Shown piece after piece: positions 5,905-63,852 of a DNA stretch of 64,000 bases. The stretch is from Leucoraja ocellata (taxonomy: Eukaryota): NCBI GenBank assembly GCA_036785375.1, contig JAWMAR010000058.1, positions 6,324,001 through 6,388,000 of the forward strand, given 5' to 3'. The position numbers and the translations under genes are program-made. The notes beneath the pieces were generated by a model. That model ran no database searches. It saw only the letters and a program-made list of their open reading frames with translations, and was not told the origin of the DNA. Each line of letters opens with the position of its first letter. Position 1 is the stretch's first letter.

Positions 5905-6045
5905 ACAGAATAGAAGGGTTGTGACCTGAAACGTCGCCTATCCATGTTCTCTTTTTGATCTATTTTTTCTTGCATAATAAAGGCACAAAGAACTAGAGTA
6001 ACTCAGCGGGTCAGGCAGCATATCTGCAGAACATGGATAGGTTTT
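5905..6045. mobile_element. Penelope-derived short element; two inverted segments with a partial hammerhead motif
   Basis: gaagggttgtgacctGAAACGTCgcctatccatgttc on +, followed by the inverted segment gagtaactcagcgggtcaggcagcat...gaacatggatagg. Confidence 0.7.
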
Positions 6046-6627
6046 TCCATTTTTATCTTTCTTTTGTGACACCTGCTGGAAGCTCCCGCAACTTTGAAGC
6101 AACTTCTAAAAAAATACATACTGTGAAAAAAAAACATTGACATGTGAAGGAGGTGATTGTTAGTTGTGAATTGTAATCATATTTTGCATTCATGAGGTTG
6201 ATTCATGCTCTAGTTTATAACATCACTTGTTGATTGAGAATGAATGAGTTGAAACCAATGAGAAATTGTCACTCCCTTCAAGGGAACACTTTGCTGGGTC
6301 ATAAAATAGTTATATTTTCTGCTGGATGTCATTGTTGATTGCGGGTCTATTGTCACAATGCTGTTTAAAGTATTTTTGATCCTGTAGCTTCTCCAAACGC
6401 CTTATAATTTATTGAGGAAGCTCCTTTGTAGTTTAAAAATAAAATATCAGGTTGGGAGTTTAGTGTTTTTTCATGTACAGTGTATTGCAGTTGAATCATT
6501 TATTTATTTTCAGCTTTGTTTTTGCAGTCTCTTGGAATCAAGGATGACTTGCTTCCATACCACTTCTGGATTCTGAGATGGTCGCTAAGGTCAATGTGGG
6601 AACCACAGCAGGAAAAACTTTTTCATC

Positions 6628-6893
6628 CAGAGAGATGAGGAAAAACTTTTTCACCCAGAGAGTTGCAAATCTGTGGAATTCCCTTCTTCAGAAGGCAGTG
6701 GAGTCCAATTCACTTGAGGTTTTCAAGAGAGAGTTAGATATAGCTCTTGGGGCTAACAGAATCAAGTGATATGGGGAAAAAGCAGGAACGGGGTACTGAT
6801 TTTGGATGATCAGCCATGATCACATTGAATGACGCTGCTGGCTCGAAGGGCCAAATGGCCTACTCCTGCACCTATTTTCTACCGTTTCTATGG
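6628..6893 (+). mobile_element. CR1/HER1 LINE 3' end
   Basis: EMRKNFFTQRVANLWNSL...FKRELDIAL, then the 3' UTR ggcctactcctgcacctattttcta; reverse complement of the 1191-1582 family. Confidence 0.9.
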
Positions 6894-7237
6894 TTCTCAA
6901 TGACAACCCAAAAACCCCAACTCCATTTTGACTGATCATGGACTAAAGATTCCCATGAGTTAGTGACAATATTACACATCTTCAAGATGATTTGGAGAAC
7001 ACCCTTGAATCTTTCTCTGTTCACCTGATGACCTCTTGCCATGACAGACATTGCACTCGTGTATCTGTTTCCATCATCTAGTGTCATTCGTGAAACAATG
7101 TGGCCCTTTCGTCATAGTGTAATTACAGATGTTGATGAGGTTAAAAAGGGCATGCATTGTGGTTGATACTGCCCCCTACGTTTCTGTTGCAGTATCTTGA
7201 TGATCTTGTCCATTGTGCATGTAGATAGTAGATAGCT

Positions 7238-8152
7238 GCTTGCTCATCCCCCTACTGTACTCACTCTACACTCATGTCTGCGTAGCCAGTCATAGTGCAA
7301 ATTCCATCATCAAGTTCGCTGACAACACCACTGTTGTGGGACGTATCATTGATGGAGATGAGTCAGAGTATCGAAGTGAGATCGACCATTTGGCCAAATG
7401 GTGCCAGCACAATAACCTGGCTCTCAACACCAGCAAAACCAAGGAACTGATTGTGTACTTTGGAAGGGGTAGGATGGGGACCCATAGTCCCATTTATATC
7501 AACGGGTCAATGGTGGAGTGGGTCAAGAGCTTCAAATTCCTGGGCGTGCATGTCTCTGTAGATCTCTCCTGGTCCGAGAACATTGATGCAATTATAAAGA
7601 AAGCACATCAGCGCCTCTACTTCCTGAGAAGATTACGGAGGGTCGGTATGTCAAGGAGGACTCTCTCGAACTTCTACAGGTGCACAGTAGAGAGCATGCT
7701 GACCAGTTACATTGTGGCTTGGTTCGGCAACTTGAGCGCCCAGGAGCGGAAAAGACTACAAAAAGTTGTAAACACTGCCCAGCCCATCATCGGCTCTGAC
7801 CTCCCTACCATCGAGGGGATCTATCGCAGTCACTGCCTCAAAAAGGCTGCCAGCATCATCAAGGATCCACACCATCCTGGCCAATCATTCATCTCCCTGC
7901 TGTCTTCAGGTAGAAGGTACAGGAGCCATCAGGCTATTAAACTCCACTCACACAAAACTCTGATCATTAATAGCCCATTGCACTTTATCTGTTTATTTAT
8001 GTGTGTGTATATGTATATATTCATTGGTATATGGTCACATTGATCTGTTCTGTATTTATTTATGCCTACTATATTCTGTTGTGCTGAAGCAAAGCAAGAA
8101 TTTCATTGTCCTATCTGGGACACATGACAATAAACTCTCTTGAATCTTGGAA
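7238..8152 (+). mobile_element. 5'-truncated Rex1/Babar-type LINE (RT C-terminal half and 3' UTR)
   Basis: ORF 7240..8043 has PLLYSLYTH, IIKFADNTTVVG (FADD mutated), LNTSKTKELIV, SFKFLGVH and KKAHQRLYFLRRL; tail aataaactctcttgaatcttggaatc. Confidence 0.92.
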
Positions 8153-8429
8153 TCTATGCTGTGAAACAGCTCTGCTGCCACTGGGAGGAAGCAATAGACA
8201 AAGACTCTGATGAATAATGTTGTGTGTCTATTACAACTTTAGTGATGCAAAGGAAGCTGGTTCAGGAAGTGAATCTTTATGATAATATTTGGTGCTTGGT
8301 CAACAATCTGTTTTAAGAGTAGCTCAGCAACAGGCATTGGATTAATGCTAGATTTGGGTTATTCTGCTGAGACAAATAAATTATACTCGGTAGATCTACA
8401 GGAATCAGAAGGAATCTTGCTCATGTGAA

Positions 8430-8582
8430 TAGAAGAAACGGGTGACATTTCGGGTCGAGACCCTCAACCCGAAACATCACCCATTCCTTCTATCCAGAGA
8501 TGCTGCCTGTCATGCTGAGTTACTCCAGGATTTTGTGTCTGATATCTTCGGTGTAAACCAGCATCTGCAGTTATTTCACACA
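8430..8582 (+). mobile_element. Penelope-derived foldback element with 14-bp TSD
   Basis: Flanked by CTTGCTCATGTGAA at 8416-8429 and 8583-8596; inverted arms at 8430-8459 and 8463-8492; body gatgctgcctg..gctgagttactccag. Confidence 0.85.
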
Positions 8583-9394
8583 CTTGCTCATGTGAAGGCT
8601 GGTTTAACACCCGAATGTTACACTCCATTAAAATCATTGGGAAGATTGTAAACCATGATTCCCTCTATCACTTAGATCTCACCTGGAGTGAGTTATCTTA
8701 AAATTACATCAGCATGCCCAGTAACCGAGTTTTTAAAAACTTACTATATTAAAGGAACTTTTAATTGTTATGAAATGAAACATTCATGTGAATAGAAGGT
8801 TCAAATAGTCAAGCACAGGTTTGTGACTGAAGTGAGATGAGATGGAAATATAGAATCGTGCTACAGCATGAAGAAATGTAAAGTAGCATGAATTTTAATT
8901 ATAAACTAAACTGTTAAAAAAAATTGATGGTCCGTGGAAATGAGAGACTTTGGATGGAAATAAATTTAATACAATATAAGAATTGAGGAATGGAAAATGA
9001 GCATTCCGAATACCGTAAGAGGTAGAATGTGGGTCTTAGCTACAATGTCAGGCCATTAACAAAAAAATAGAATTTTTGACTCGGACATTGTTGAAGTAGT
9101 ACTTTGCTTCCGAGCATCACTTTGGCTTTGTGCATTTTGTTTCTATATAACAGCTTGTAAAACCATTGTCACCACCCAAGTAAGATGACTTTGGATAACT
9201 GTCAGAGTGACAAAGCTGGATATTAAACATACAGTTTGACCCTCTTCAGGAATAACCTGATTGTAAAATTCTTGTATGATTGCACCATGATGAAAAATTC
9301 TCTGGAAGTTTTAGTGAGAAGGATCTTTTTCCAAAGTAAACCTACAGGAGAATGCATCAAATTATGAGTGTTGCAGAACTAAATGAATACCACC

Positions 9395-9760
9395 AGCCAA
9401 AACTAGAAAATGCAGGGAATACTCAGTGGGCCAACCAAGCATGTAAGTTAACAGAGTCTGGGACCCTTCATCATAAAAGTGTCCGTGGAAATGAGTTTGC
9501 GTCAGCACCTTATTGAAGATTTGAAGAGCGAGTAAACCACTGAGAGTGAACACGCAAAATGGACAGACGGAAGTCCTCCTGCAGAGCAGAGGAGAGAGAA
9601 AGAACATCTCCAAATTGCCATTCCTGGAAGAGAAGCGGCAGTGAATTCATCAATGAATGAAAATACTGCTGGAAATCTGAAACAAAAACAGAGAATGACA
9701 GGTGCAATCGGCTAGTCAGGCAACAGTTAACGTTTCAGGTCTGGGACCCTTTATCAAAAT
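9395..9760 (-). mobile_element. Two old Penelope-derived terminal fragments with decayed hammerhead motifs
   Basis: Reverse complements read TGATGAAGGGTCCCAGAC (about 9456-9474) and TTGATAAAGGGTCCCAGACCTGAAACGTTAAC (about 9726-9757). Confidence 0.55.
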
Positions 9761-10821: not shown

Positions 10822-10869
<48 letters not shown>

Positions 10870-16348: not shown

Positions 16349-17195
16349 TTAACCAGTACATGTGGTATATTTGGATTTCCATATCACATTCGATAAAGTG
16401 CCACCTAAAAGATTACTATTCATGGCATTTGGTGTTATAGCTTGCACATAGAATGGGGCTAACTAATAGAATAGTTGGGAAAGATCATTTTTATGTTAGT
16501 AAGCTGTAACCAATTGGTTGCCACAAGGATAAATGCTGGAACCTCAACTATTTTAATGACTTGGATAAGGAGGCTCAGTATATTGCTTCTAAATTTATTT
16601 TGAGTATCAAAACTGGTGGGGATACAATTGGTGAGAAAGACACGGAGTGTCTGTAAAGGGAGAAAGTGGGCAAACAAATTGGCAAATGTAGTGTGGGGAA
16701 ATGTAAAGTTACACACAGAAAGGGGGTACTGAAAAGCAATTTAAATGGAAACAGACTCACAGTTCAGGACGGGGTCAATGTTTGTGCACTGGCACAGCAA
16801 ATAATTAATAAGGCATATGGAATGGCCTTTCTTGCAAGAGGGATGGAGTATAAACGTAATGAAGCCTTGCCATAACCATTGGGATCAATGTTTTGAACTA
16901 GGAAGAACAAATGGTGATCTTATTGAAATATCGATACTTAAGGAGATAATGTTGAGATTATGATTCCCAATTTTAGGGGAGTCTAAAACCAAGGGTCAAA
17001 GTTTCCGAGCGTGTGGGTTCCCAAAGAGGTCTGAATCTATGGTAATGCCTATCCTAGAGAGATGGTGGGAAGATTATTGAATATGTTCAAGGCTGAGAGG
17101 CAGAATTTGGGGCATTGAGTGAGAGGCAGAATTTGGGGCATTGAGTGAGTTGAGGATTATGAGGGCAGGCATAAAAGGTGAGTTGAGAGCAGTTT

Positions 17196-17790
17196 CATAA
17201 GGCCATAAGTGATAGGAGCAGAATTAGGCCATTAGGCCCATCAAGACTGCTGCGGCATTCTATTATGGCCGATCTGTCTCTCCCTACTAACCCCATTCTC
17301 CTGCCTTTTCTCCATAACCCTTGACACCCGTACTAACCAAGAATCTATCTATCTATCTGTCTTAAAAATATCCAATGACTTGGCCTCAACAGCCTTCTGT
17401 GGCAAAGAATTTCACAGATTCACTACCATCTGACTAAAGAAATTCTTCCTCACCTTCCTAAAGGGATGTCCTTTAATTCTGAGGCAATGACCTCCGTCCC
17501 TAGTCTCTCCCACTTGTGGAAACATCCTCTCCACATCGACTCAATCCATACTTTCACTATTCGGTAAGTTTCAATGAGATTTCCCCCTCATCCTTCTGAA
17601 CTCCAGCGAGTACATGCCCAGCGCCGTCAAATGCTCATCATATGCTAACCCACTCATTCCTGGGATCATTCTTGTAAACCTCCTCTGGACATTCTCCAGG
17701 GTCAGCGCATCATTCCTCAGCTATGGTGCCCAAAATTGCTTAGAATACTCCAAATATGGCCTCACCCACGCCTGATAGAGCCTCAACATG
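17196..17790 (-). mobile_element. Nested CR1 3' end
   Basis: cataaggccataagtgataggagcagaattaggccatt tail and reverse-strand ORF2 C-terminus. Confidence 0.85.
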
Positions 17791-18250
17791 TTTTAGATGT
17801 GCCAGGATCTTCATTGTGAGAGCAGCTTGAGGCTATTTGGTGCACTTCTACTATTTATTTTGTTTGATTGAGCTATCAATAAAAAAGCACAACAATCAAG
17901 GTCTTCAACATATGTCGAGAGTAACTTGTCGTGATATAGATTAAAACTGTCACATTACTGTATAAAACTACATAATATGTGCACCACAGTCTAATCTGCC
18001 CAAGTGGTTCTCATTGATTTTATGCATGACATAAGTTGCCTCCTGCCATTATTCACTCAGCATATCTTAATTTCCATTTGTATCTAGCTATATTATTAGC
18101 CTGTATTGCTTGCTTCCATAAGGTCATGTGAGTAATGAAATGAGTAACATCTAGCCAAAAAAGCAAACTGTTGGAGGAACAGAGGTGGTCAAGAAGCATT
18201 GGTGGAGACAGAAGGGTAGTCGATGTTTTGGGAAGAGACACTGCTCAGGT

Positions 18251-18420
18251 AACCAAAGACAGACACAAAGTGCATGAGTAACTCAGTGGGTCTGAAAAGT
18301 CTGAAGAAGGGTCCTGGCCCAAAACTTTACCTAGCCTTTTTCTCCAGAGATGCTGCCTGACCCGCTGAGATACTCCAGCACTTTGTGTCTATCTTTGGTA
18401 TAAACCAGTTCTTTGTTCCT
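18251..18420 (+). mobile_element. Penelope-derived foldback element with decayed hammerhead core
   Basis: Inverted arms accaaagacagacacaaagtgc..gagtaactcagtgggtc and gacccgctgagatactccagcactttgtgtctatctttggt; CTGAAGAAGGGTCCTGGCCCAAAAC at 18301. Confidence 0.8.
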
Positions 18421-19184
18421 ACTGTTTTTCCATATTGTAACCACTCTGGTTAAAGGAATTTCTCTTTAATTTCTTAGATTTTATCACGATCATCCTTTGG
18501 TTATGGGTCCCAAAATTAATTCATGGAAATTAGCACGTTGTGATGTTTCTTTTTTTTTTCTTTTTTTTTTTAACAGCCAAGAATCACATTCTCATTATAG
18601 TTCCGAGTTGCATTCTTGTAGTACTGCAAAATTGTTCAACAATGAAGGAATGCTACAGTGGTTTGGGATGATAACCATCTTTAGCTATGATTAAAATGTG
18701 ATTTCAATTCCATCTCTCCAGAGATGCTGCCTGCCCCGCAGAGTTACTCCAGCATTTTGTGTCTATCTTCAGTTTTTATAATATGTGTGGAAGAATGTGT
18801 GATATGTGATTGATGGGGCAATGCTGAAATGGAAGAAATGTATTCTTTAGAAGGATGTTGTATCCTATAAACAATGCAACCAAATAAAAATTGTGAATGA
18901 TTGGGGGTTTTATGCAATAACCTTTTAGTGACAACACTGAGTTGGTTAATGATGCTATGTTCTTTGTTTCATATGTTATCTGAACCACTCATAAGGTTCC
19001 AACATTGCATTCATTTCATTCCATAAAATCTATCAGAGCCCATCCAATTAGACAGCAGATTTATAACTCTCTTGAAAAATTGCAGCTTTGATTGCTATTG
19101 ATTGCCATTGGGATATTCATTAAAATTGATTGATGTCCACCATTAAGCAGTGATAAAATAATATTTTGCTAACTTTGTACTCAG

Positions 19185-19375
19185 AGATGCGCAGGCAAGT
19201 AAGCAGTGCAGAGTTGAAGAACCAACGGTTGAAGGAGGTGTTCCATAAGAAGATTCAGGAATTCCGAGCTGTCTGCTACACCCTGACGGGTTACAAGATT
19301 GATGTCACGACAGAGAACCAGTACAAGCTGTCATCAATATATGCAGAGCACCCGGATGACTATCTGATGTTTAAG
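19185..19375 (+). CDS. MAD1L1: Internal (penultimate) coding exon of mitotic spindle assembly checkpoint protein MAD1
   Basis: Translation (E)[63 protein letters not shown] matches the vertebrate MAD1 C-terminal region, recalled for human as [64 protein letters not shown]. Acceptor ttgtactcAG ends at 19184, branch-point-like GCTAAC at 19168, donor AAG|GTAAGA at 19375/19376. Length 191 nt, phase 1 to phase 0. Confidence 0.97.
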
Positions 19376-20809: not shown

Positions 20810-22700
20810 TCTCTGACGTGGGCTGGGACTTATTGAGGACCATATCCATCTACACAGATATACGTCTAATTTGGTCTTTGAGTGGCCCTATTCTCGTTCT
20901 AATTACCCATTTCCCTTAATATACATTTCATTGGATTCTAAGTAATTATAACAATTAAAGCTATCTCACACCACCGATCTATAAAGCTATCTTATGCCCT
21001 GATTTTCTTGTGCATTCCTGTATATTTGTTACTCCTCCAGAGATTCACTTGATCCCAACTGCATGTACCTGACCCATTCAACCTCTTTTCTTCTAACCGA
21101 GTCTTCATACCTCTTGACATCCAGTGTTTCCTACTCTTGCCAGCTTTGCCTTCACTCTAAAGGAACATGCAGACCAGGGTGGCACAGGAGCAGAGTTGCT
21201 GCCTTACTGCAGCAGAGACCCAGGTTCGATCCTGACTATGGGTGCTCTCTGTACAGAGTTTGTATTTTCTGCCTGTGACCGCATGGGTTTTCTCCGGGTG
21301 CTCCGGTTTCATCCCACATTACAAAGACGTGCAGGTTTATAGGTTAAATGGGTTCTGTAAATTGTCCCAAGCGTAAAGGATAGAACTAGTGTATGTGTGA
21401 TTGCTGGTCGGCGCGGACTCATTGAGCCTAAGGGCCTGTTTCCACGCTGTAATTTTAAACTAAACCAAACTCACGATATCACACTTTTCGAAGCCTCCCA
21501 CGTGTCATGTGTACCCTTTGCCCGCTGCTTGACCCACTGAGTTACTCCAGCACTTAGCTTTTTTTGTAAACCAGCATCTGCAGTTCCTTGTGTCGCCAAC
21601 TTACACCAATCAACCTTTGTAAGCTCCAGGCCAATACTGTAAAACTCACCATCGCACGATTTAGATCTTTAATTTGTGGAACAGTTCTGTCCTTTTCCAT
21701 AACTATTTAAAAACCCAATGGAACTATGGTAATTGGTTCCAAAGTGCTTCTCAAGATCAGCTCAGACTGTTACCCGGCCTTATTTCCCAAGAGTAGGTTA
21801 AGCTTTACAAAGATCCAAAGTTACCAAATTCCACCCTATTAAAGCCCGGGCACAATAGCAAAATATTGTTTTTGTGACAACTCAATTATTCTTGCAAATA
21901 TCCACAATCTTCCTGTACATTTGTCCCTAATTCCCATTGGCCTATAGTATACACTATAGTATGTGGACTATAGTATATCCCTACAAGGTAATCATCTCCT
22001 TTTTATTTCTCAGCTCCACCCATAAGATTTGACTGGATAATCCCTCAGTAATCTAATCTCGGACTACTATTGTGCTGTAGCCATATTTCTGTAATAGCTA
22101 TTACTTCTGTCGAACGCAGTTTAATCCAATAGTCCTTCTTTGTTCCCTGCCACACTCCTACCCATCTTGTCATTGATGTTGTTGACTTCTCCATCAACTT
22201 CTAACCTCTTATCTGCTTTTCCCACTCCATTACTCACCCAATGTAATCTAGTTTAAACCCTTCCTCGTGGCACTAGAAAATCTGCCCATGAGGATGTTGG
22301 TTCCCTCTCCAGTTCAGGTGCAAACTGTCCCTCAATTATACAACACCTCTGATTCACAAGAGATCCCAATGTTCCAAAAATCTGAATCCCTTCCCCCTGC
22401 ACCAACTCATTGGTCCTGTTCGACTATTCCTACATTCACATATGTGGCACTCTAGAGATCTAGAGATTGCTGCCCTCGACGTCATGGTTTTTTAACATTT
22501 TCCCCAGCTCCCTATACTCTCTGTCTACTCCATTTGCCCTTCCTGGTGGTCAGCAAGGCATTGTTTGCCTGCAGCTTAGGTGTAACCACTTTGTTAAAAT
22601 TCTTATCTATCATACTCATCCCGGATGAGACAGTGCATCTAGCTCCAGTTCCTTAATTTGGTCAGTCAGGAGCTGCAGCTGGACACACTTAACACCGGCG
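20810..22700 (-). mobile_element. Decayed CR1 5' half (ORF1 esterase end plus ORF2 endonuclease/linker), interrupted by short elements
   Basis: Reverse strand at 22245-22330 encodes DSLHLNWRGTNILMGRF..RKGLN* (CR1 ORF1 SGNH-esterase C-terminus); YRP-like motif near 21940. Confidence 0.65.
21177..21470 (+). mobile_element. HE1-like tRNA-derived SINE, near full length
   Basis: gggtggcaca head, B box GGTTCGATCC at about 21223, central gggttttctccgggtgctccggtttc, tail gggcctgtttccacgctgta and (TAAAC)n. Confidence 0.88.
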
Positions 22701-29700: not shown

Positions 29701-29849
29701 ACGTCTGCCCCATTTATTTCATAATGGGAGATCATGGATATACTGCTAACCTTCACTGATGCCTTACATTGAACAAAGTTCCTCAACCAGCATATCCATT
29801 GCACAACCTGGCCAAAAATTGTCCCCTCTGCACCCAACCACAACCACCG

Positions 29850-34227: not shown

Positions 34228-34410
34228 CTCAGAAACAGAAAATACAGGAAACACTCAGCAAGTCAGGCAGCATTTGCAGGAAGAAAATCAGTTTCAGATT
34301 AGAGATCGTTCATCGGGCCTGTTTTTCTCTTTTTCATCCAGCTGTTTGATCTGCTAAGTGCTCCCAGAATTTTTAGTTTGTTTCAGATTTCCAGCCTGTG
34401 CAGTTTCTTG
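34228..34410. mobile_element. Old Penelope-derived foldback element
   Basis: ggaaacactcagcaagtcaggcagcat versus inverted gctgtttgatctgctaagtgctcccag. Confidence 0.55.
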
Positions 34411-35652
34411 AATTCCAATGAATTTGCTGCCACATTACAAGAGTGATTACAGCTCACAGGTAGTGAATTGCTTTTGGGATATTGGTTGTTGTTTGTTTTC
34501 TTTTTTCTTGTATTTTTCATTGAAATCTCTATCCCATGCACACGTCAATGGCATTTGTGCCTTTGTCTCAGAGTTCTGACATTGGTGACTTGCTTTCCAT
34601 TTGTTTGTCATCTGATCAACCAGTGTCAGTAGATACGCTGGTTGGCTTTTCTTTGCCATAAAACACTTGAAGTGTAAGATGGTAGAAGGTTAAAATAAGT
34701 GAACGTTGCATTTGCAAAGAATATTTTTTGGCTAAGGCTGATTCAGCCACACAAAAGGTGAACTGAATCAGAATCCTGAAACTTCAAAAGGAAGGAAAGG
34801 TAATGCAGTGGGCTCCGCAGATCATATGATCTAGTAAGGACTGAATTACCATGGAAATAAAATAAAACTTTTCTTGCTTACATGACTCTTTAATTAGGAG
34901 TCATTGTTGTAATGTATATTTATGATGATATTAAATACAAGATGAACTACTCACAGGAAATTATCGTGAGTATTGCTCCTGGTGTAATGCACTCTTAACA
35001 TAGCTTCCAAGCACAGTGTTTTAGAAAGGGGCTTGTTTTTTTGTTTCCAGCATGATCAGCCTTACGACTGACTATATGTGTATTTGGATTTTCCTGATAT
35101 TTTTATTTTTTGTGAAGAGTACTACACTGACTATTAGATGGAGTATTTTTTTAAATTCTACAATGGGGTTTCATTATAAGTCGCAGTGTGATGGAAATGT
35201 TGTCAGACTCACTGTCCATTTTATTCTTTAATATAGGAAGTAGTTGCAGAATTCATTCTTAATTCTCAGAGAATTCTTGGAAAACAATCACAACTGAATG
35301 ATTTGAAAGGTTTCCCGTGTGAAAAGACATACGATGCACAAATGCAAAGAACCATTTCACAACAGGGTGGACTGTTATCTGTGCAATTTTATTGATTTAA
35401 ACCAGGGCCATTTTATTTTATGCGCCTTTTGCAGCCTTGAATTCTAAACAGTTGAATTATTTGTTTTAAATCCGTATGTTTAATGAATTGTTTGAAATCA
35501 CTCAAAATGATTCAGGACGTATTTTATTTTGCTGACATTGATTTATCTCTCTTTTATCAGATTAATTATCAGAAAACTGGATAATTGCTGCATTTTTGCA
35601 TTGTTATGTATTAATATGTGGTACATCATATCCATTATTTATTTACTCATTC

Positions 35653-36600: not shown

Positions 36601-36694
36601 CTAAGCCTATATGAATCAAGCTCATTCTCTTATACTACTTCATAATGAGATCACAAAATTATTAATGATGTCTAACCACGAGGTATACCATGAT

Positions 36695-36940
36695 GTAGAA
36701 AGAAGGAACTGCAGATGCTGATTACAGTCAGATAGCAACTCTGGAGAACATGGATAGATGATGGTTTGGGTCAGGGCCCTTCCCTAGACTGATTGTAGGT
36801 GAGTGGAAAGAAAGCTGGGAGAGGTAGGACAAAGCGTGGACATGGGCAAGGGGCTCTTTTTTTGATAGGCAGATGGTTGGAACAATGGACAAAGATTAAA
36901 GCAAAGGATTGAAGAGATGTAAATTGTGAAGACAGATGTA
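36695..36940 (-). mobile_element. Penelope 3' terminal fragment with decayed hammerhead
   Basis: Reverse complement of the 42400-42700 region (ggaactgcagatgctg, ggagaacatggatag, gggtcagggcccttcc.tagactgattgt). Confidence 0.7.
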
Positions 36941-40142: not shown

Positions 40143-41481
40143 TAAATAATTTGGGGGTCTTTAGATTTGTGCAGCTCCTTCACATCCATGAGGCAATTAA
40201 TCAATTACTTTTGCCTTTCAGTATTACATGAGCAAAGTTGCAGTTGGTATACCATAAATTGCAAATAATAGGTTGGTTAGAAAAAGAAAATCAGTTTGTG
40301 AGGATTATTACTCTCTTTTACGGCTCCCCTGTTCCATTGTTCAAAATATCTTCTGCCCTGTCCACGAGGACATCACTACGTTTCTGGTTGAGTTGCTGGT
40401 AATTGTCCTGTGGCTTTGTGCATTTTCTGTGATTCCTCACTCTGTGACTAAGTGTGCCTTGATACAAATAATTCATGATTGTGTGTGATTCTTTTCCACA
40501 GGTGCATTTGATCGACAGACAATGGCAATTACATTCTGCCCACTTTCAGTTCATTCTGGGCTCCATTCCTTCTTTTACTCCAGTGGGGCACACTCTGGAA
40601 TAAACCATCCATGAATGATTTGTTAGTCCAGTTGACAGGTTGCTAATGCAAAATGTGTTTTACATGCATTTTTGTGGTAATTTGTACCAGAAAACATTTG
40701 TCTACCAGAAAATGTTTGCATAATATTCATGTACCACTGTCAATTATGTTTCAGTGAAAATGTACCGTGTTTGAGATGTATTATGTTTTACCTGAGGTGG
40801 TTACAAAATTCAACCTCTAGTCTTGAGTGGATCATCCATAATCAATTGAATAATGCAGCAAATTAATGGTCTATTCCTGCACCTGCTGCACCCACTGTTT
40901 ATAGGTTAGGTATTGAAAATACACTAAACCAAAGTTCAGAGTTATAATTTGCTGATGCAGAATATTTCACAGATATCAGTGTTGGGTAGCCCATCACTTG
41001 GACTATCTCTGTCACCTCTCTTCCCTTTCTTAATTCTCTGTCTCCACCACAGGGGACAGACTATCAACTGACCTCTACTACAAACTTACTGACTCCCACG
41101 GTTATTTGGACTACACCTTCCATCCTACTTCTTGCAAAGATGCTATCCCCTAGAGTTAATTTCTCCGTCTCTGCTGCATCGGCTCCCAAGATTTCCCATT
41201 TTCTTTTGTAAATGTGTTTTCCACCCTGCTGTAATAAATGTTTTCCTCATCGATGTATCCTCTTCGTCCCGTAATTCCGCTCTCGTTCCCTCTCTTTCCA
41301 GAGTTTCCATGTCCATTACCTTTCACCCCACCAGCCGTCACATCCAATACATCATTCGCTGACATTTCCACCACATTCTTTAACATTTTCATAATGATCC
41401 AACCATCCAGTCTCATCTTCCCATCCCCACCCATTTCTGCCATCCACAGAGACTGCTCACTCCGCAACTCCTAGGTTCATT

Positions 41482-41682
41482 ATAAGGTCTTAAGGTCATG
41501 TGATAAGAGCAGAATTATGCCATCCGGCCTATCAAGTCTACTCCACCATTCAATCATGGCTGATCTATCTCTCCATCCTAACCCCATTCTGCTGCCTTCT
41601 CCCCATAACCTCTGATACCTGTACTAATCAAAAATATATCTATCTCTGCCTTAAAAATATCCACTGACTTGGCCTCCATAGC
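41482..41682 (-). mobile_element. CR1 3' tail inserted in the Penelope element
   Basis: Homologous to 17196-17395. Confidence 0.85.
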
Positions 41683-41907
41683 CAATTCATTCATCCGTTC
41701 CCACGCAGACCACCACCTTTTCACGTACTTTCCCCTTGAGCCACAGGAGATCCACCACCTGTCCTTACACCACCTCCCTCAGAGGTTCACATGCTCGCCC
41801 TCTAACCACATCTACTGCATTCAGTGTTCCCAATGTGGCCTCCTTTACAACGGCGACACCGAAATGTAGACTCCCCATCCCTATACTGAACTTTCCATTG
41901 CGGACTC

Positions 41908-42120
41908 TGTGGCGGCACCTGGTGGCAACCCAATGAACCATCGGCTCTAGAGGGCGGCGTCTTGGTGTAGGAGGCGCTAGTCATGGGGTTGGTATTTAAG
42001 GCCGGGCAACGCCCGTGACCTGGGTGGAGTAGGGAGCTGTATTGGAGAGAATAACATGTCCAGTGCACGCAACACGTGTATGATTAGTTTTTGGCTGGAC
42101 TCCTATTCGTCCCCACTACA
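41908..42120 (+). mobile_element. Solo LTR (Gypsy-type, 213 bp) inserted in the Penelope element
   Basis: TGTGGCGG...CCACTACA termini; 4-bp TSD ACTC at 41904-07 and 42121-24; TATTTAA box; AATAAC poly(A)-like site; Penelope sequence resumes after it. Confidence 0.8.
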
Positions 42121-44511
42121 ACTCCTCCATTTCCAGAGTGAGAATACGTGCAAACTTGAGGAACAGCATCTCATATTCCACTTGGATAGTTTACAATCTA
42201 ATGATATGAATATTGAATTCTCCAAATATGGGTAACTAACCTACAGACAGCCATCCTGCTTCCTTTTCCCCCTCCTTTCACACCCTCCACCCACCTTTTT
42301 TTCACCCTCTCTCTTCCCTTTCCCCATCTAGACTCACACCCATTTTACATCCTCCCACCTGGCTTCGACCTGTATTCCTTCCTCTGGCTTCACATTCACA
42401 CCTGTTCTATCTTCATCTCACACTTTTTGTCTTTTTTTCTCTGGCCTTTGCCCAACCATTTGCTTACTAACCTCCACACACCTCACCGCCCCCACCCCCA
42501 CCTGTATCCACCTGTGATTTACCAGACTTTGTCCTGGCCCTCCTCTCTTCAAGCTGTCGTCCAACCCAGCACAATCAGTCTGAAGAATGGTCCTGACCTG
42601 ACACGTCAGGTATCGATGTTCTCCAGTGATACTGCCTGACTCGCTGAATTACTCCAGCACTTTGTGTTTCTTTCTATGAACCAGCATCTACAGTTACTTG
42701 TATCTGCACTCATAGTATATAAATAAAGAATGTAGACTTTGTGAAAAAACTAAAGCAATTTAAAAATGGTAAATGGAGCTAAAATGGCAAAATACAATAA
42801 GAATTATTTTGGGACAACAGGTTGGATGTCTCAATGGATACTTTTATTGACAAAATTGAAGAAATCCATTTTGGAAGTAAAAATAGGGGATATGATCATC
42901 TTGATATTAAGGAAGATTAAAGAAATTTCAATGGCATAGTGCATTTCATAAGCTCTGGTCCAATATTTTTTATCTCTCACCTGAACACTGCAGTGTGGGT
43001 TCAGTTTGACATTTTATCCGAAAACTGTTCCAAATGTGCACCATAGCCAGTGTACTGCATTGGAGTATCACTCTGCTTTATGTGTGGATTGATCCCATTT
43101 CTCTTTGATCCATCAGCAAGAGTGCCACAACTCAAGGATGACCCTTTAATAGAGATCACAAAGTAGATACAAATGGACTTTAACAAAGTAATCTTATATT
43201 TGGATATATGGAGATGGAGAAGGTGTAACTAAAAGGATGAAGGTGTAATCACGCGAGTGTTTAGTTAAGCTTTCATCGTTTTGTTATGTGCAACATTGGG
43301 TGCCTTATCTTTTTTAAGATATGATAGTAATTGGAAAGACTTAATAAGGGTGTTAGCAAGGATGTTATGAAGAGATGAGTAAGGAGAGGAGTTTTTTGTT
43401 CTGCGGAAACCGAGAAAGTTAACGGTTACCCTGACAGAGGTCTTCGTGTTTGCCGAACTGTTAGGTTCAGTGAGATGGCAACAAGAATACATGGATTGAA
43501 GATAATCACAAAAGTCTTCAAGCGGAAGATTGAGGAATGTTTTGCATAGCAGATGGTTTGATTGTAGCATTCATTGCCAAAAACATTGAAGCACAATCAG
43601 TATTTTTTTTAATTGCTTATAAAAGAATATTACAGATTATGTGGATCAAGTAGTATTGTGGAATTAGATTAGGTGATTACATAGAAGGAATGCCAGCATA
43701 TATATACTATGACTAACAAAGTAAATAATCAAGAGAAAATTGCAGGAATTTATAGCTCATGATTTGCTTTACACAGCAGTACATTGCTACATAAATCTGT
43801 GACTACCTGCGGTGTTAATAAATCTGTGACTACCTGTGGTGTTAAAAAAACAATCCTATCTAACTTGTTCTCCTCTGTTGGCTAGCCATTAAAACTGAAA
43901 AATCTAAATTATGGGAATGTTTAGGGTTCTAAAAGTACAGCCAAATTGTCATTATTGCATTTTGAAATTATATCTCATAATTACTTAATTTCCTCCATAA
44001 GCGGCTTCAAGGTTTGTCTTTTATTGCCATTACAGTGGCATCGACCAAAAGCAATGCTACGTTTCCTCTTAACTCCTCCGCAATTGCAGATCAAAATCAT
44101 AAATTGGAGGCAGTTAGGCAATCCATTTGTTTTAGGGGTTAAACACAATATTTCAAGAGTGAATATTGAGAAAGCTCTGAGGTCATGAGGTTAAGTCTTG
44201 ATGATTTTACCCCTTCACATAGATTATGAGGTGATTGAATCTAATTTTAATGATGTTTTACATGATTTGAAGAGTTGGTAGGGTTGACAGGGAGAAACTA
44301 TTAAAGGGTAGAGCAGAACAAAAGCACATGTCAAAATTAGGACCGATCACTTCCCTACCACTAATAAGCTTCCAGCTGTTACTATGATAGATGGGCAAAA
44401 ATTCATGAATGGAAATCTTGGTCTATCCTCCAAAAAGCAGTTGAAGCAATGGGTTCGATTTTTTTTTCAGCTTGATAATTGTTTGTTTGCCAGTGATGCT
44501 TTAGAGACTTA

Positions 44512-51200: not shown

Positions 51201-51700
51201 GACCCAGTTCTGGAAGGCAGCTCCGGAACTGATTACAGCCTCTCAAAAGTGAACATTACGTACTTACACCAGCAGATAATGCTTGTTGGAGCATTTGGCC
51301 ACCTGTTCACTCATTCACTGGCAGCACTTAATCACAAAGGCTTTGAGGTAAGTGACTCTTGGCCCTCCAAGAATGTCTTTCCATAAAGACATGATGAACA
51401 GAGAGTCTATGGAGACTCGTTTGCAACAAATCCTCTCTGATGAGCTTTGTATTTACAGGCTATAGTAACAGAGATCTGTGACATTCTCATGCCTGAACTG
51501 GTCTTTCTGAAGATCATCGCAACTCACAATTTCATGTTCTTCAGCTCGTTCCATCGGCTGCTACTGATTACTGACATATTTTTCAGTTTGCTACACACCA
51601 CAGTATTAGGAACTGAGGAATGACTTTCCTTGCTATCATTTTAGTGAAGGGAATTTGGAATTTGAAAAATTAAATAAATCAATAACTGTAATACTAGTGT

Positions 51701-51907
51701 ACACAAAAAATGTGGAGAAACTCAGCGGGTGCAGCAGCATCTATGGAGCGAAAGAAATAGGCAACGTTTCGGGCCGAGACCCAAGAAGGGTTTCGGCCCA
51801 AAACGTTGTCTGTTTCCTTTGCTCCATAAATGCTGCTGCACCCGCTGAGTTTCTCCACCTTTTTTGTGTACCTTCGATTTTCCAGCATCTGCAGTTCCTT
51901 CTTAAAC
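51701..51907 (+). mobile_element. Penelope-derived foldback element with 16-bp TSD
   Basis: ACTGTAATACTAGTGT at 51685-51700 and 51908-51923; inverted arms of about 84 bp at 51699-51782 and 51788-51871; adjoins a Rex1 remnant (51910-52110). Confidence 0.9.
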
Positions 51908-54061
51908 ACTGTAATACTAGTGTCCGGGCAGAATCTACCAATCTCTGTAATCTTCCTGCCTGGCTTGAGTTTCCAAACCAGGCCGTGATGCAACCAGTGA
52001 GTACGTTGTCTCCTATAAATCTGTCGATGTTAGGGTATTTCCTGCATACTAAATATCCTCACTCTTCTAAGGAAACAGAGGTGTTGAAGAGCATTCTTTG
52101 TGTTTATTTGAATCTTCATGCGCAACATCAGAATGTTTCCTCATCGAGAACTGGAAAAGAGGGAGATACATGTTCAGATGGGCAATAATAGATTCCTTTG
52201 GAGGGCTGATACTTCTGAACAGTCCGCACAATCATTATCCCCACGTAAACTAAATGATCTCCACACTTGTTATCACCATACATGATTTGTTCTGTGAGCC
52301 TAAATGAAGGTGATTAAGGACCCTGAATAATTTGTTCATTGCCCTGTATTTGTAGGCAGCCTCATTTTGAGACAAAAACAATGTTAATAATTGGGTCGAT
52401 GTTGATTAAATGGGAATGGGGGTATAGATTCTCTGAATGTGTGTGTGAGAATGTGTCTGTATGAGAGAGCAGTATATATTTCATACAGCTCTCACCTTGC
52501 CATATCTTAAGAGGTCATTGAATTCCTTGTAAGTTTGCTTCATTGTTTGTTTCAGTGCATCAACAATATGCAATCCACTTACCACTTTCCAGGCAATAAT
52601 ATTTCAGATAAAATGAAGCCCCATTCACTAGTTCAGAGGGGGGGTTATAAGTCCCATGACATTGAAAATGAGTCCCTCTAGTGTCCTGATCTACACATAA
52701 CCCTGTGCAAAGTATTACAATCTAGTTCTATTTCATCTCAAGGATTCTTATGGGATCCTACTATGCGGACAAACTGCTGATATAATTGGCACCCATGAAC
52801 TTTGATATACTCCAAATGTGGAAATTATAGACGTTGTTGAGAAAGTTGTTTTTTTTTAATACTTATTTTGCTTGGCATTATAATGGCAGAGTAGATTATA
52901 AAAATGATTTATTGTGTTATGGAAGGGACGATGTTGGGTCATTAGAGATTTTTCAGGCTATCTCAATTTCTGCAGCAGCCAACTTAACCAAGTCACCGAG
53001 CTGCCAGATTGTTATTCTGCAATTTTCAAAAAAGCTTTAAAGAAAACCCGAGATAAATGGCATATCAGCAACAAAAAAAACATTATGCACCTTAGGCCCA
53101 GTAATGCATCTAGTTAATGAGCCTATTATTGCAGGAGCAGAAATCAATCCCTGAAATTATATTAATAGCAGTCAGGGAACAGGGTCTGTCTTTGCACTCA
53201 TCGGGAGAAGAATCATAACAAAATGGCTGCAAGCTTATGTTTTGGAATTATATTCGACGGGAGAATAAATGGTTCTTTCTAACTATTATTGCTTGGACTT
53301 GATAGAGGAGCAGCTTATTTTCTGTTGTATTTCCCAACCCTGAGCTTGATGGGTGAATTTCACTCCTGGCTATTTCTGTCTCAGTACAAGTGACTTGTGT
53401 AATGAGGTGCACACATTATACAAGTAGTAACTGCAGCTGCAAATTACAGCAGTGCACTCTTGTTTCCAGGTTATCTGAACCAGTATAGTTACATCTATTT
53501 TCTGAGGCTTTTCGCAAAACTACTGTCCACTCCAAGCTCTCTTAAGTGGCGAGAGGGAGGAAGGAAGTTCTTCACTATTTAAAAACTGCATCCCACTCTC
53601 TCTTCATGCTAAAACCTTTTTTTTTTCTTTTGTAATACCTCCCAAAGCGCAGCGTTGCCAACAGATGAACACTTTTTTCACACAACAGCTGTTCAGCTAA
53701 TCTATTAACAAACCTCTCGGTCCTAGGGCACAGTATGAAGATTATTTCTGAGTCAAACTTCCATTCCATGGTTTAATTGCATTCCTTTATCTTACCTTTT
53801 TAATGGTTTACTATTGTAAATCTTGTCAACACTATTGGTTCAGATTTTAAATAAACTAATGACCCATATTAAAAATATTCAAATAAATATTTTACAATGT
53901 GTGTTCTAGTATGGTAAGGTTGTGGTTTTGCAGTGGGTCTTCCAACTGATTGCTAGATGTGACTGAAACATAGCCCCAAACAGTTTGCAAGTTTGAAATG
54001 TTAGCAAATGCCTGTAGTCCTGCAGCAGCTGGCAAATCCATCCCGCTGGTCTTACAAATGT

Positions 54062-55160
54062 TTAGAGTCATAGAGCTATGTAGCATGGATACAGGCACAA
54101 CATCCCACCTTGTTCATGCCGAGCAAGTTGGAATTCTAGGCTAATCCCATTTGCCTGCATTTAGCTCATATCCCTCCAAACCCTTCTTATCCATATGTCT
54201 GTCCAAATGTCTTTTTTAAGTCATAATTATATCCACTTCTGTAGCTTCTTTTGGCAATTTATTCCAGTCACAGACTACCCTCTGAGTGAAAAGGTTGCCC
54301 CTGAGCTCCCTCTTAAATCTCTCTCCTTAAGCATATGCTCTCTAGTTTTGGCATCCTCTACCCAGGGAAAAAGACTGTATTCATTTTATCCATGCCCCTC
54401 CTGATCTTGTTCACTTCAATAATCTCACCGCACGGACTCCTATGCTCCAAAGAAAAAAGTTGCAGACTAACCAACCTTTACCTATAACTCAAGCCGCAAG
54501 CCCAGGAAACATTCTGGTAAATTCTGTACAGCTGCATTATGATGTGCAAGCTTTTCTACTCAGTACCCATGCCAGTGAAGGTAAGCGTGACAAACGGCGT
54601 CTTCACCAACCTATCCACCTGACTCGCCACTTTCAGGGATCCATGCACCCGTACTTCCAGATCTCTCTGTTCTGCAACACTCTCTAAGGCTCTACCAATT
54701 ACCATGCATGTCCTGCCCTGGTTTGACATACCAAAGTGCAATACCTCACACTTGTCAGAGTTAAATTTTATTTGCCATTCCTTGGCCCACCTTCCTAAAT
54801 GATCTAAATCTTGTTGTATATTTGGATACCCACCCTCATTGTCGACTATCCCACCAATTGTCACATCATCTGCGAATATACAAACGATGTTAACAACATT
54901 GGCATCCATATTGTAAGGTAGATAACACACAACAGTGGACCTAGCATCAACTCCTGCGGCTCTCCACTGTCACAGGCCTCCAATTATAAAAACAAGCCTC
55001 CATAACTAATTGATGACCACTTTCTCCAAGACAATTTTGAATCCAATTGGTGATTTCACCTTGGATTCCCTACAATCTAACCTTCCAGTTTAACTTACCA
55101 TGCGGGACTTGTGAAGGCCTTGCTCAAGTGCCTATAAACAACATCCTCTGCCCTGGCCTA
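54062..55160 (-). mobile_element. CR1 LINE 3' 1.1 kb
   Basis: ORF 54556..54930 IFADDVTIGGIV..QQDLDHLGRWAKEWQIKFNSDKCEVLHFG..QRDLEV. Confidence 0.92.
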
Positions 55161-57971: not shown

Positions 57972-58098
57972 AGCGGACACCGCAAAGTGCGAGAGGAACT
58001 CAACGGGAGGGAATGGAGAGGCAACATTTCAGGTGTTGAGCCCCTCCAGGCACTTTGTGTTTAACACAAGATTCCAGCATGTACAGGTTCTTGTGTCA
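57972..58098. mobile_element. Penelope-derived foldback remnant
   Basis: caaagtgcgagaggaactcaacggg..ggcaacatttcagg versus ctccaggcactttgtgtt..ttccagcatgtacag. Confidence 0.55.
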
Positions 58099-59039
58099 CT
58101 GTTGATCCTGAGGGATTACCTGAGAAGAAAGATTTGATTCAGAATGAAAAATCCAAATAGCATGTTTGGAGCTGTTTGGTGGGTTTGAATCAGGATGTAA
58201 CGGTATTCTTTATTTATCAAGATTCACATTCACTATTTCCATTCAAAAACATTTCATCAGCTTTTATCTTTTGTATTTTCTGCATTGGTTTAATATAAAG
58301 AATGAAAACATCTATTTGTTCAGGTAGGAAATATTTTTAAAAAGTATCTATCTTAATATGTAAAATATTATCTTTGACAATATCAACGTGGCAACTGCAT
58401 TTACGCCCTGCTAGCCCCCCCACTTCTTTATGTCAAATAACTCTTTTGTCCTGCTGACGTTAAAGGCTAGGTTGTTGTTCTAACATCATGACCCCAGGTT
58501 CCCAATCTCATTCCTATTGTTGTTGAAGCGGCTGACAACAGTGATATAATTGGTGAACTTAACAAGCGGGTTGGCACACTACTTGGTCACACAGTCATGG
58601 ATGCTCAGGGAGAGGAGCAGGGAATGAACACACAAAAAGAGAAAATATTCTGACCAATTCTATCAGACTGAGGTTTGCCAATCAGGAAGACCAGAAGCGA
58701 TTTGCAGTAGAGATCCCAAGTCCAAGGTCGAGGAGTTTAGAAATTATACTCTTGTTACTATTTCATTTTGTAAAATGCATTTCTTTTTGTAACCTAATAT
58801 TGACCATGGCTGTGATCTATGACTGTATTCCAGCTTATTCGAATTTCCATCAAATATATAGAATGAAAGAGGTGGGATAGTTTTAATATTAAAGGACAAG
58901 CATGAGAAATAACTTTGGCTCAAAAGTGGCACATTGCATGGAGATAAAAACTAAAGCTATAGTCATCCTAACCGTGAGTATTATACAAAATAACAATAAA
59001 CTCACTTGAACTTGAACATCATAGCATCATATTCATAGA

Positions 59040-60030: not shown

Positions 60031-60147
60031 TTTAATAAAAGCAGTGATATGAAATGTTTCCTCTTATAAATAAGGCAAGTCATACTAATTGTATGAATTA
60101 ATCAGGATAAGTAAAATTATTAGTGGATATCTTTTGGTTTTAATATT

Positions 60148-60705: not shown

Positions 60706-63700
60706 ATTACTGCGTGTTCAGTGGCTTCAATCCAGCATGGTAACACTTTCATTAAAATCATCAAAACAAAGGCCATTTATTATTAATGTGAAAGATGTAT
60801 TGTCACATTTCGAATAGCGGTTTACATTTAAGCGGAAGGGGCCAAGCTTGTGAATGTTTGGGAATAAGTGCTCTGAGACTAATCTGAAAAAAAGTTGATC
60901 AGGTTAAACTCTAATAGTCAACGCTAACTACGCAGTGCAGGTGGTAAACTAGCAGGTTGAATGAGTAGTTTACTCAAATCCTTTTATGATTCCGTTTCCA
61001 GAGTCAAATTTAAGGCCTGCATATCTGTGAGATTAAGACATGGCTAGAATTGAGATTATCAAGTAATACCCAGCTGTTCACGCCTGGAGGTAGCATTCTT
61101 AATGGACTTGAAATGATTTTATGCACATAATTTTCCTCCGAGCCCTGATTAGGTGACCAGAAACCTGACAAATGGAATTCTGTTTGGAGGTATGTGAGCT
61201 AATGCATTTGAGTGGGGCAAGGAAGCCATGAGAATGCACGGGAAACGGTGGGTTATTGAGATGTATAAAGGAACAGATGGAACGGACTCTAGCCGGTGAG
61301 GTGCCAAAGCATACAAACCATAGGCTGTCAAATGGAATTAAGCTGTCGGCTCTTCAATGGCTCTCAAAGTCTGAGGGGCTGGATAACATACTCATAGATC
61401 ATTTTACTTGATTGCACAATGCACCATATTTTGCTCAAGAAATAATTCTGTTTTTATCTTCAGGGGTTTCATTCATATATGCTGAGGATTCTTTAAATAG
61501 TCTGCAAACGGACTATTGTTTCTTTTGCTGAGTAAATAGAAACCCATAAAATAGATCATGTCCCACTTACAACTCGTGAGCAAACGCATCAATGCCAATA
61601 GACAATTGGCTGCCGGTGTCTGCACTGCTAAATTCAATAACCCTATCCATAAATATGCCAAATCTGCAATCTATCACCAGAATAACAGAGCAGGATTTAA
61701 TATTCTCTTGTCAAGTATCATGTTATGGATGTCACATTCCCCGAATGTGACCTATGCAAGCACCATTATAAAAATAGCTGTACATTTTTCATTCTGCATG
61801 AGGTGGCCACTCACTATGTATGGTTGTGGTTTGGAACAAGCGTGAGCAAACAAGATGAGTCATTTCATCAGTCAACCTTTCATCTTATTTCATCAGGGTT
61901 CAATGGGCCATGTGGCTTCCTTCTGTGCTGTAGCAGTTCTGTGATTCCTTTGGGAGTTTATAAAGGGAACAACTGGGCAGAATTGCCTTTTGTAGTGGAG
62001 ATTCTGCAATTTCTGCCACAGTCTGAGTGAAGTGCCTTGACGTATTGCATGGAGGGTCACTGTGTGAACCATGTATCAGGGAACGAAGCGCACTGCAATC
62101 AAGCCTGCAATATAGATTTACCTCTTGCTGTAATTTGCTTGATGATGTTTTAAATCCAAGGCGACTAGGAATTGCTAATAAAGCAGTTCTTGCACATTCT
62201 TGCTATAAATAGTGATTTATAAATCACTGCTTAACTGCTAACCAATTGACAGCAACCTTTATATCTTTGAGAAAGTAATATTATTCAATAAATGTGTTGG
62301 CAGCCTGTACTTTAAATTAGATGTGCGCATTATTGTGAATGGAATGACTACGGAGCATTTCAGTCATATTATCCTTCATTAGGTTTTCCTCCCAATTATT
62401 AAATATGTACTGAAGCTGTAAAGTTTTTTTTTATAATCCATAAATTAGTTACTTTTGATTCTGTGCAACATTTCTAATCCAAAGTACCTTGCCAAAGGTA
62501 CTGTTACACTGAGAAATTGAGAAGTTGTGTAGGAAGCTAGGCCAAATTAACTGTACTACCCATGAAAAAATGCCTCTGATTTTGGAAAAGGATATGCATG
62601 GAATCACTGATTCTATCCTGACATTTAAAAGCACATTTAGATTAGGAATGGCAAAAGTCAAAATTAATCAACTCTGCACATTTGTTTGGGAAGTACAGAT
62701 ATCTGCCCTAGATCCTACAATTACATTAGAAAGTCACAAAATCATTGTATTAAATGCAATTGATTTTGTTGAGAAGCCTGATGTAGATCTTTGAAAAGTG
62801 CCACATGTAATCAAAATTCAATTAACAAGATTAGAGATTCAGATTTATCTTCTCTCTGCTAATCCCTGCACAGAATTGTGAATCAGTAGAATAGCCAAAC
62901 TCTATCCCACTGTACACAAAGTCAACTTTGAACAAAGTGTGATAAAGAATTAGATTAGCGGTTTAAGAATAAATGTTTGTGAAATTAAAGAACATACTCC
63001 AATGTAGTCTTAGTAATGAATGATTCATCAAGGAAATGCAAATAAACAGCACTAAATAAGTTAAATTGGAGCAGACTTTTTTCTATTTGTTTATGGGATG
63101 TTCTTGCAGGTGAGGACATTATTTAAAAACCCATTTCTAATCACCTTGAAACCGTAATACCAGCCACTGCCTTAAAACCAGCAGTCCCCCTGATGTTGGT
63201 TTGCCCACTATGGTTGGGTCTGGTTCAGTTGTATTTCTGGTTGGTGCTGAAGGACTAAAATATTGCTATACTATTAAAAGTCAGTGTTAGATACTCAGAC
63301 ATTCTCTCTTGTGCTACAGAAGTGTTGCTTGTCACATTGTAATCCCTGACTGAATGTCAGAAAAATCACAGAAAACCATGGATACAGAACGAGGCAATTT
63401 GCCATCATGTCCGTATCATGTGAGAAAGGATATTCCCAGCATAGTCCTATATTACAGCACTTGGTCCGCGGCTCTGGGCCGTTCCTCATGTATATATCAG
63501 GGTCTGTTGTAAATGTGATGACAGATTGGGCCACTACAAGTGTTTTAATCAGTAAGTTCCCAAATTCTACCACAGTGTGCATCAAAACAATTCTCCACAC
63601 TGATCCTTCTCCAAGTTACCTTCAATCTTGTGGTGCTTTGGTTGTTTGAGCTATTGATAGTACTGAGGAATCCACATGTAGTATACCTTGATCTTTCTAT

Positions 63701-63714
63701 TCACCATGTCTTCT

Positions 63715-63758
63715 TTAGGTCAGACTGAAGAAGGGTTTTGGCCCGAAACGTTGCCTAT
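63715..63758 (+). ncRNA. Putative minimal type I hammerhead ribozyme
   Basis: CTGAAGA (63725-31), A, stem II GGGT-tttg-GCCC, GAAA (63745-48), palindromic AACGTT helix III; predicted cleavage after GUU at 63752; stem I is imperfect (taggt/gccta with a bulge). Confidence 0.6.
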
Positions 63759-63852
63759 TTCCTTCGCTCCATAGATGCTGCCACACCCGCTGAGTTTCTC
63801 CAGCATTTTTGTCTACCTTCGGTTTTCCAACATCTGCAGTTGCTTCTTAAAC
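63721..63852 (+). mobile_element. Penelope-derived short element
   Basis: Nearly identical to the right half of the 51701-51907 element, with the same 3' end cttcttaaaca. Confidence 0.85.

Follow-up and report, generated by a model that had tools for sequence, protein, structure and literature searches.

Short hammerhead-bearing repeats in the MAD1L1 introns of Leucoraja ocellata are probably terminal repeats of a coding Penelope-like retrotransposon, left by run-off reverse transcription

The 64,000-nucleotide stretch of the Leucoraja ocellata genome analyzed here (assembly GCA_036785375.1, contig JAWMAR010000058.1, positions 6,324,001 to 6,388,000 of the forward strand; hereafter the window) lies within the gene MAD1L1 and carries many short repeats with a hammerhead ribozyme motif, which a preliminary description had regarded as an independent, non-coding family, processed by its ribozyme and mobilized in trans by Penelope proteins. 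We find it more probable that these repeats are the pseudo-long terminal repeats (pLTRs) of an abundant, coding Penelope-like retrotransposon, and that the short copies arose directly by run-off of its reverse transcriptase (RT), with no separate element involved. The repeats were searched for with a pLTR profile built from ten natural copies, both in the window and in a genome sample of 1.464 Mb that comprised the whole MAD1L1 region (664 kb) and sixteen 50-kb blocks chosen by position. This gave 551 matches in the sample against none in the same DNA reversed, which excludes chance, and corresponded to 438 insertions, or about one per 3.3 kb, in agreement with the high copy number previously claimed. 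The profile found 20 arms in the window and the shared body motif gave 12 matches there, on both strands and with at most nine mismatches. Of the dozen or so related elements listed earlier, 12 of 13 named sites matched the profile, those at 9660 and 57972 weakly, while the site at 9400 gave no profile match at E ≤ 1; several of the sites were head-to-head inverted pairs, which had gone unmentioned.

The repeating module consists of a minimal hammerhead motif, a body of about 65 nt and an optional tail of about 36 nt. Among 176 full heads, picked for carrying 12 or more of 15 anchor letters and thus biased to good copies, the core was kept, the pairs of the 4-bp helix II with its 4-nt loop were kept in 86-90%, and positions 15.2-16.2 were mostly CG, with changes matching the expectation for CpG decay. 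Helix I comprised two pairs, present in 87% and 93%, with a third in 15%, or in 52% if bulged. With its CUGANGA and GAAA core, conserved across subfamilies, helix II, a UH cut site and the palindromic ACGU in helix III, the motif is a minimal type I hammerhead, as had been proposed. Strictly intact heads were nevertheless few (37 out of 528 arms), and none of the 15 scored arms in the window passed for core and helices, so that no copy there keeps an intact head of the kind previously written out for it. The Rfam scan gave no hammerhead match at E ≤ 1, and the predicted folds of four natural copies showed no stable structure beyond that of shuffled sequences (z -0.6 to 1.3).

The link to a coding element was found using as query a piece of RT sequence located upstream of one long copy, which gave 143 scored matches with an identity of at least 92%. 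As many as 29 of 30 fetched RT loci ended in the pLTR module, 17 of them at about +92 (untailed) and 12 at about +128 (tailed), which supports a Penelope origin (positions are counted with the C of CUGA as 0, the predicted cut site preceding +28). When 20 loci were extended upstream, six had a pLTR at both ends, the upstream one being tailed and followed by a short 5′ untranslated region (UTR) and the open reading frame (ORF), with the first ATG about 30 nt past the tail; three of these six had stop-free frames of 1,202-1,256 codons. The single ORF couples an RT of the Penelope-like element (PLE) type to a C-terminal GIY-YIG domain, as judged from a weak Pfam match to RVT_1 in a 268-residue piece and a GIY-YIG-like motif read by eye in the translations. 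In the position-picked sample, copies linked to an ORF end fell into several 3′ UTR types, each of them associated with a particular pLTR variant, and the GTCACC and GTTGCC pLTR types, previously described as two subfamilies of the short repeat, were both found at the ends of long coding copies. In a tree of 134 solo stubs and 63 long copies the two labels were mixed in all large clades, with 48 label changes against 54 after shuffling. Both sequence types are therefore subfamilies of coding elements, and an independent non-autonomous family is not supported. One full-length copy (L202:3122-3246 / 7031-7185) had an upstream pLTR with a GTCACC-type head on a GTTGCC-type tail, followed by the ORF, and at its 3′ end a second tail from another subfamily, an arrangement that would fit template switching from subfamily to subfamily. 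A very old pLTR type with GTTAAC after GAAA was also seen in the MAD1L1 region (offsets 40213, 76609, 558479, 609241 and 610782 from C58:6004001); an ORF link was found for none of eight such relics, whose small number and advanced decay allow no verdict.

The 5′ ends of 243 unpaired arms with at least 80% identity were mapped using a library of 27 copies with their UTR types, the reference set excluding three library copies that bore nested insertions and nine that had a mutated core. The commonest 5′ end was the G of GUCUGA at position -2, found in 30 of the 243 arms, and of 128 arms that reached the front edge of the hammerhead, 85 stopped within -7 to +2. This corresponds to a stop rate per base of 0.10 in that interval, to be compared with 0.002-0.004 upstream and 0.008-0.015 downstream of it. 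The peak persisted across subfamilies having different upstream UTRs, and several of the flanks adjoined a target-site duplication (TSD). Exact whole-genome counts for the youngest type agreed with this, in that 37,968 copies had T at -1, of which 3,135 differed at -2; of the 34,833 with G at -2, 6,745 differed at -3; and of the 28,088 with A at -3, 4,140 differed at -4. The largest single drop therefore fell immediately before the G at -2, and as at least 16,659 copies extended to -9, long copies are common in this type. Loose ends at -3/-2 were also present in contigs from three public runs carrying three organism labels. The same map bears on ribozyme processing of the template, since a template made at the cut site would start 30 bases further downstream, at +28; one of the 243 unpaired arms did so and six began anywhere within +27 to +30, and the processing previously proposed fails on that ground. 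The short copies are truncated Penelope insertions, yet with a sharp preferred 5′ end and not the variable one that simple truncation would leave. The hammerhead region also occurred with a direct duplication of 34 nt (L203:3138-3174), which recurred in the contigs of the three runs and in RNA reads.

At the other end, copies terminated at one of two 3′ positions, about +92 or about +128. Paired arms were arranged head-to-head in 90 cases and tail-to-tail in three, and among the 77 head-to-head pairs in which tails could be scored by profile (13 could not), 62 combined one tailed with one untailed arm, 12 had both arms untailed and three had both tailed, the expected numbers being 38, 24 and 15 (p 3e-8). 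That distribution supports two priming events per head-to-head pair. Target-site duplications flanked 31 of 142 unpaired arms, where shuffles gave 2.4, and 28 of the 90 pairs, where shuffles gave 1.4, an excess which indicates that the stubs were retrotransposed, as had been assumed.

The sharp start at the front edge likely means that the RT ran off the 5′ end of its RNA template. The RNA of the element would then start at -3 or -2, within the sequence TCAGTC, which we take to match the initiator motif. Reverse transcription would begin internally, at +92 or +128 of the 5′ pLTR, and given such an RNA start it would reach the RNA 5′ end after 95-130 nt, thereby yielding a short run-off cDNA. 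Joining at that point would leave a solo 'strong-stop' stub, and a switch to the homologous 3′ pLTR would let the RT continue into the UTR and ORF, a step that longer copies would need. If both nicked strands were primed, one from each start site, head-to-head pairs with one tail would result, and the ribozyme motif would decay after insertion. In vitro a Penelope protein was indeed seen to nick and extend both strands, insertion did not need ribozyme cleavage and RT of the anole element started at two internal sites bracketing the tail, which the two 3′ ends at about +92 and +128 fit (PMC11167929). It is also established that the pLTR of Drosophila virilis Penelope contains an internal promoter (PMC2377424). 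With a little less than even confidence we thus propose that PLEs replicate through a strong-stop step, with a start inside the 5′ pLTR, run-off at the first paired base of the hammerhead, a template switch through the pLTR that any longer copy would require, and priming of both strands, one per site; TSD-flanked solo and head-to-head stubs would be the failed intermediates, mapping the RNA 5′ end and both start sites within a few bases in vivo.

Several observations weigh against this model. The boundary is spread over about -6 to +1, its mode at -2 lying one base inside the A at which an initiator would act, and 122 of 250 unpaired arms began at +3 or later, short of the head. Local alignment may moreover set the end at the conserved head if the UTR type of a copy is missing from the 27-copy library. 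An excess of G beside the junction might be a trace of a copied cap, which we suggest only weakly as it comes without a clean control; it was modest (41 G, 32 C and 27 T among the first 100 copies listed that differed at -3, as counted by eye), and at -4, where the base was G in 1,409, A in 1,750 and T in 981 copies, A was also high. Four RNA runs displayed no site where many molecules begin, although such libraries show starts poorly; read ends likewise showed no pile-up, a result that says nothing on cleavage. These runs share only the species label of the best-matching public data sets, none of which is listed as RNA, and may come from another organism; the pLTR was covered to a depth of thousands, the start of the ORF to less than about 30. 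Duplications were seen in only 31 of the 142 unpaired arms, and the tree, based on only 106 columns, was slightly clustered (14-22 of 500 shuffles being as low), so that some solo masters are possible.

Such masters are the essence of an alternative that we consider unlikely, in which solo pLTRs behave in the manner of short interspersed elements (SINEs), being transcribed from the initiator-like head and recopied in trans by the Penelope protein without ribozyme processing. It would account for the sharp 5′ end and the TSDs, stubs outnumber long copies in older clades, pLTR-only composites recur with shared junctions elsewhere in the genome, and in rotifers pLTR sequences alone mobilized unrelated DNA (PMC3846280). 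The tree, however, contained no large clade made up of stubs alone, and both named subfamilies end coding copies. Untailed solos also have nothing past the first RT start, whereas the anole protein needed about 55 nt past the start region (first 172 nt of the ORF, with starts at 111-118; PMC11167929).

Quite unlikely, in our view, is stalling on a longer template, either a tandem or a read-through RNA, with the RT halted by the folded hammerhead, at its front edge, or by a bound protein. The 2-bp helix I has the G at -2 precisely as its last paired base, the rate of stops has already risen within the motif, and at least 44% of the youngest type pass the point seamlessly, all of which would suit stalling. 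An RT moving 3′ to 5′ should, however, have unwound helix I before reaching -2; the folding predictions given above do not place stable structure there, and the stop does not depend on the upstream sequence. We regard it as distinctly improbable that splicing sets the front of the RNA. In that case the pyrimidine-rich UTR together with CAG would serve as the 3′ acceptor, and a very short upstream exon would supply the G at -2. Acceptor-like sequence is present in every subfamily and in D. virilis Penelope the 5′ end of helix I marks the end of an intron (PMC4209133), but the stubs share no upstream exon, their flanks being unrelated and in several cases adjoining a TSD, and no GT..AG joint to the site was seen among the best-supported RNA-read joints listed.

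Very improbable, finally, are templates in the form of ribozyme-cut monomers or circles as in retrozymes, the mechanism originally put forward, which the 5′-end map largely contradicts and which is further disfavored by a helix I of only 2 bp and by the dispensability of cleavage for insertion in vitro (PMC11167929), even if the core is conserved across subfamilies. Four head-to-tail tandems with an upstream unit ending at +26 to +28 did resemble a -3 to +27 fragment joined to a second copy, and were considered as cleavage fossils. We rejected that interpretation because the first 100 listed of 697 such tandems genome-wide ended anywhere from +23 to +37, as read by eye, and a 3-base TCA microhomology explains some of them.

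With regards to the host gene, MAD1L1 was confirmed to contain the window, spanning about 607 kb of the + strand (C58:6017687-6624707) with one exon inside it. The MAD1L1 region held 160 insertions in its 664 kb, to be set against 438 in 1.464 Mb overall, and is thus not enriched for the repeat. Arms were oriented about equally in the two directions (83 sense and 86 antisense; 56 versus 59 for unpaired arms, p 0.85), and intact cores were, if anything, more frequent in sense (6 of 42 versus 1 of 39, p 0.11, with one further intact antisense arm outside the filter). Selection against sense copies was accordingly rejected, there being no sign of their removal, and the suggestion that sense copies might cleave the MAD1L1 pre-mRNA is left without support. 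The copies in this gene are likely inert passengers.

The copies found in the window, together with the exon that sets the sense of the gene, are given in Table 1. They include the broken Penelope copy formerly placed near 41000-42708, which was recovered at almost the same position and has the pLTR module as its 3′ end.

Table 1. Penelope-derived copies and the MAD1L1 exon in the window (positions counted from the first base of the window)
Position	Strand	Feature	Basis	Remarks
464..516	+	pLTR body alone, no hammerhead head	profile, E 4e-6	
5912..5949	+	Decayed hammerhead head fragment, CUGA lost	profile	
5979..6042	-	pLTR body, 5′ end at +28 (predicted cut site), single case	motif and profile	
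8428..8583		Head-to-head pair: short - arm 8428-8464, tailed + arm 8464-8583	profile	Head begins within helix II
9668..9756	-	Old weak pLTR relic	profile, E 0.005	
18165..18423		Composite: old - arm 18165-18245, short - arm 18249-18294, tailed + arm from 18296	profile	Tailed + arm carries G12 to A
18707..18775	+	Untailed pLTR body, no head	motif and profile	
19185..19372 (about)	+	MAD1L1 coding exon	PF05557, E 3e-32	
21524..21593	+	3′ body and tail, no head	profile	
34234..34411		Head-to-head pair, old	profile	
36684..36823	-	Decayed tailed pLTR with short 3′ UTR piece and internal deletion	profile	
40996..42702	+	Broken, 5′-truncated Penelope-like copy	tblastn to RT/GIY-YIG residues 455-774	RT C-terminal part and GIY-YIG at 40996-42226, interrupted by other insertions; 350-nt pyrimidine-rich 3′ UTR, then tailed pLTR 42571-42702 (GAAA to GACA)
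51691..51908		Young head-to-head pair: untailed - arm and tailed + arm, CUGA missing	profile	16-bp TSD (51685-51700 / 51908-51923)
57981..58099		Weak decayed head-to-head pair	profile, E 0.03 and 0.001	
63720..63853	+	Young tailed solo pLTR starting at hammerhead front edge		Core present, helix I broken; A replaces U2.1

At 5912-6042 the arrangement was unusual, with a head fragment on the + strand facing a body on the - strand that starts exactly at the predicted cut site. Other features of the window included a 272-codon frame at 7225-8043 (+) with Pfam matches to RVT_1 and ALKBH8_N, probably the 3′ part of a long interspersed element (LINE), and a 150-codon frame at 26360-26812 (-) with a weak helix-turn-helix match, which resembles the N-terminus of a Tc1-type transposase. 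Decayed frames at 29439-29849 (-) and 54556-54969 (-) looked by eye like the RT of a CR1-type LINE. Another dispersed repeat of about 200 bp occurred at 41488-41683, 17195-17394, 29001-29165, 1221-1388 and 6699-6820, one copy of which interrupts the Penelope element.

A different derivative of the pLTR was observed elsewhere in the genome, as tandem arrays of a 66-nt unit of the body (+21 to +86) with one fixed junction, for which 23,980 exact matches were counted genome-wide in clusters. Arrays were seen in L251-L280 (C1:18.05-20.36 Mb) and in the blocks C13, C400, C800 and L217, with none in the first 18 Mb of C1, and the profile search found none in the window or the MAD1L1 region. The unit keeps GAAA and the cut site, lacks CUGANGA and is often joined to pLTR heads of other subfamilies. 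These arrays are a real non-coding derivative and a candidate for a truly non-autonomous element. In L265, L270, L272 and L280 there was also a composite built of pLTR sequence only (body, variant tail, inverted piece, second head and 66-nt units) with identical odd junctions, the copies in L270 and L280 having 317 bp in common at 96.5%.

As an annotation the result is ordinary: Penelope-like families of this kind, carrying a minimal hammerhead, were already described in 2014. The build of tandem and inverted PLE ends is, however, still treated as unsettled in the accessible literature, and a genome in which young copies number in the tens of thousands documents, to the base, the sites at which the RT starts and stops. 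These data speak against ribozyme cleavage as the process that sets the template ends, and give no sign of an effect on MAD1L1. They also make run-off with template switching and two-strand priming a model directly testable in an existing in vitro system. We found no paper on a 5′-end pile-up or on solos as run-off products, in a search outside of which lay most subscription journals as well as Repbase and supplements.

In retroviruses and LTR elements, minus-strand strong-stop DNA arises by internal priming near the RNA 5′ end, giving a short run-off cDNA followed by a jump between terminal repeats. The step proposed here resembles this by analogy only, as the priming would be by nicked target DNA instead of a tRNA and the short product would itself be inserted. 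With endonuclease-positive (EN+) PLEs (Arkhipova et al. 2013, PMC3846280; Craig et al. 2021, PMC8557442) the element has in common an RT with a C-terminal GIY-YIG domain, pLTRs, frequent 5′ truncation, solo pLTRs, a 30-40-bp tail on one end, head-to-head inverted and 5′-truncated pLTR arms and a short TSD. The one-sided tail has been published already in these two papers, but the stubs here make up most of the copies and begin at a sharply defined 5′ end, while the rotifer study explained TSD-less solos by recombination or deletion, and inverted arms by self-priming (PMC3846280). The minimal hammerheads of metazoan PLEs (Cervera and De la Pena 2014, PMC4209133) show the same core, an extra base before helix II and a palindromic 15.2-16.2; the differences are that helix I has only 2 bp here, as in the D. 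virilis variant, where Schistosoma has 4-5 bp, and that a 4-nt loop caps a helix II of 4 bp. That work also noted thousands of single motifs in vertebrate genomes as 'probably related to truncated PLEs', opposite-strand pairs and low activity in vitro. The Poseidon element PAc of Anolis (Frangieh et al. 2024, PMC11167929) agrees with ours in that its two RT start sites bracketing the tail match both 3′ ends, both strands are cut and extended, and insertion proceeds without the ribozyme; its ORF starts inside the hammerhead, however, whereas here the first ATG follows the tail, and solo stubs and a preferred 5′ end are not discussed in the accessible parts of that paper. Non-LTR retrozymes (Li et al. 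2026, bioRxiv 10.64898/2026.07.22.740005) are likewise non-coding, pLTR-related sequences with a type I hammerhead and dispersed monomers, but their definition calls for tandemly repeated units, of which two or more in succession each bear a complete hammerhead. The copies in the window are monomers or inverted pairs with broken cores, tandems with complete hammerheads were not seen there, and the units do not end at the cut site, where one of the 243 arms began. By that definition these copies are not retrozymes; they are the termini of an EN+ Penelope-like element.

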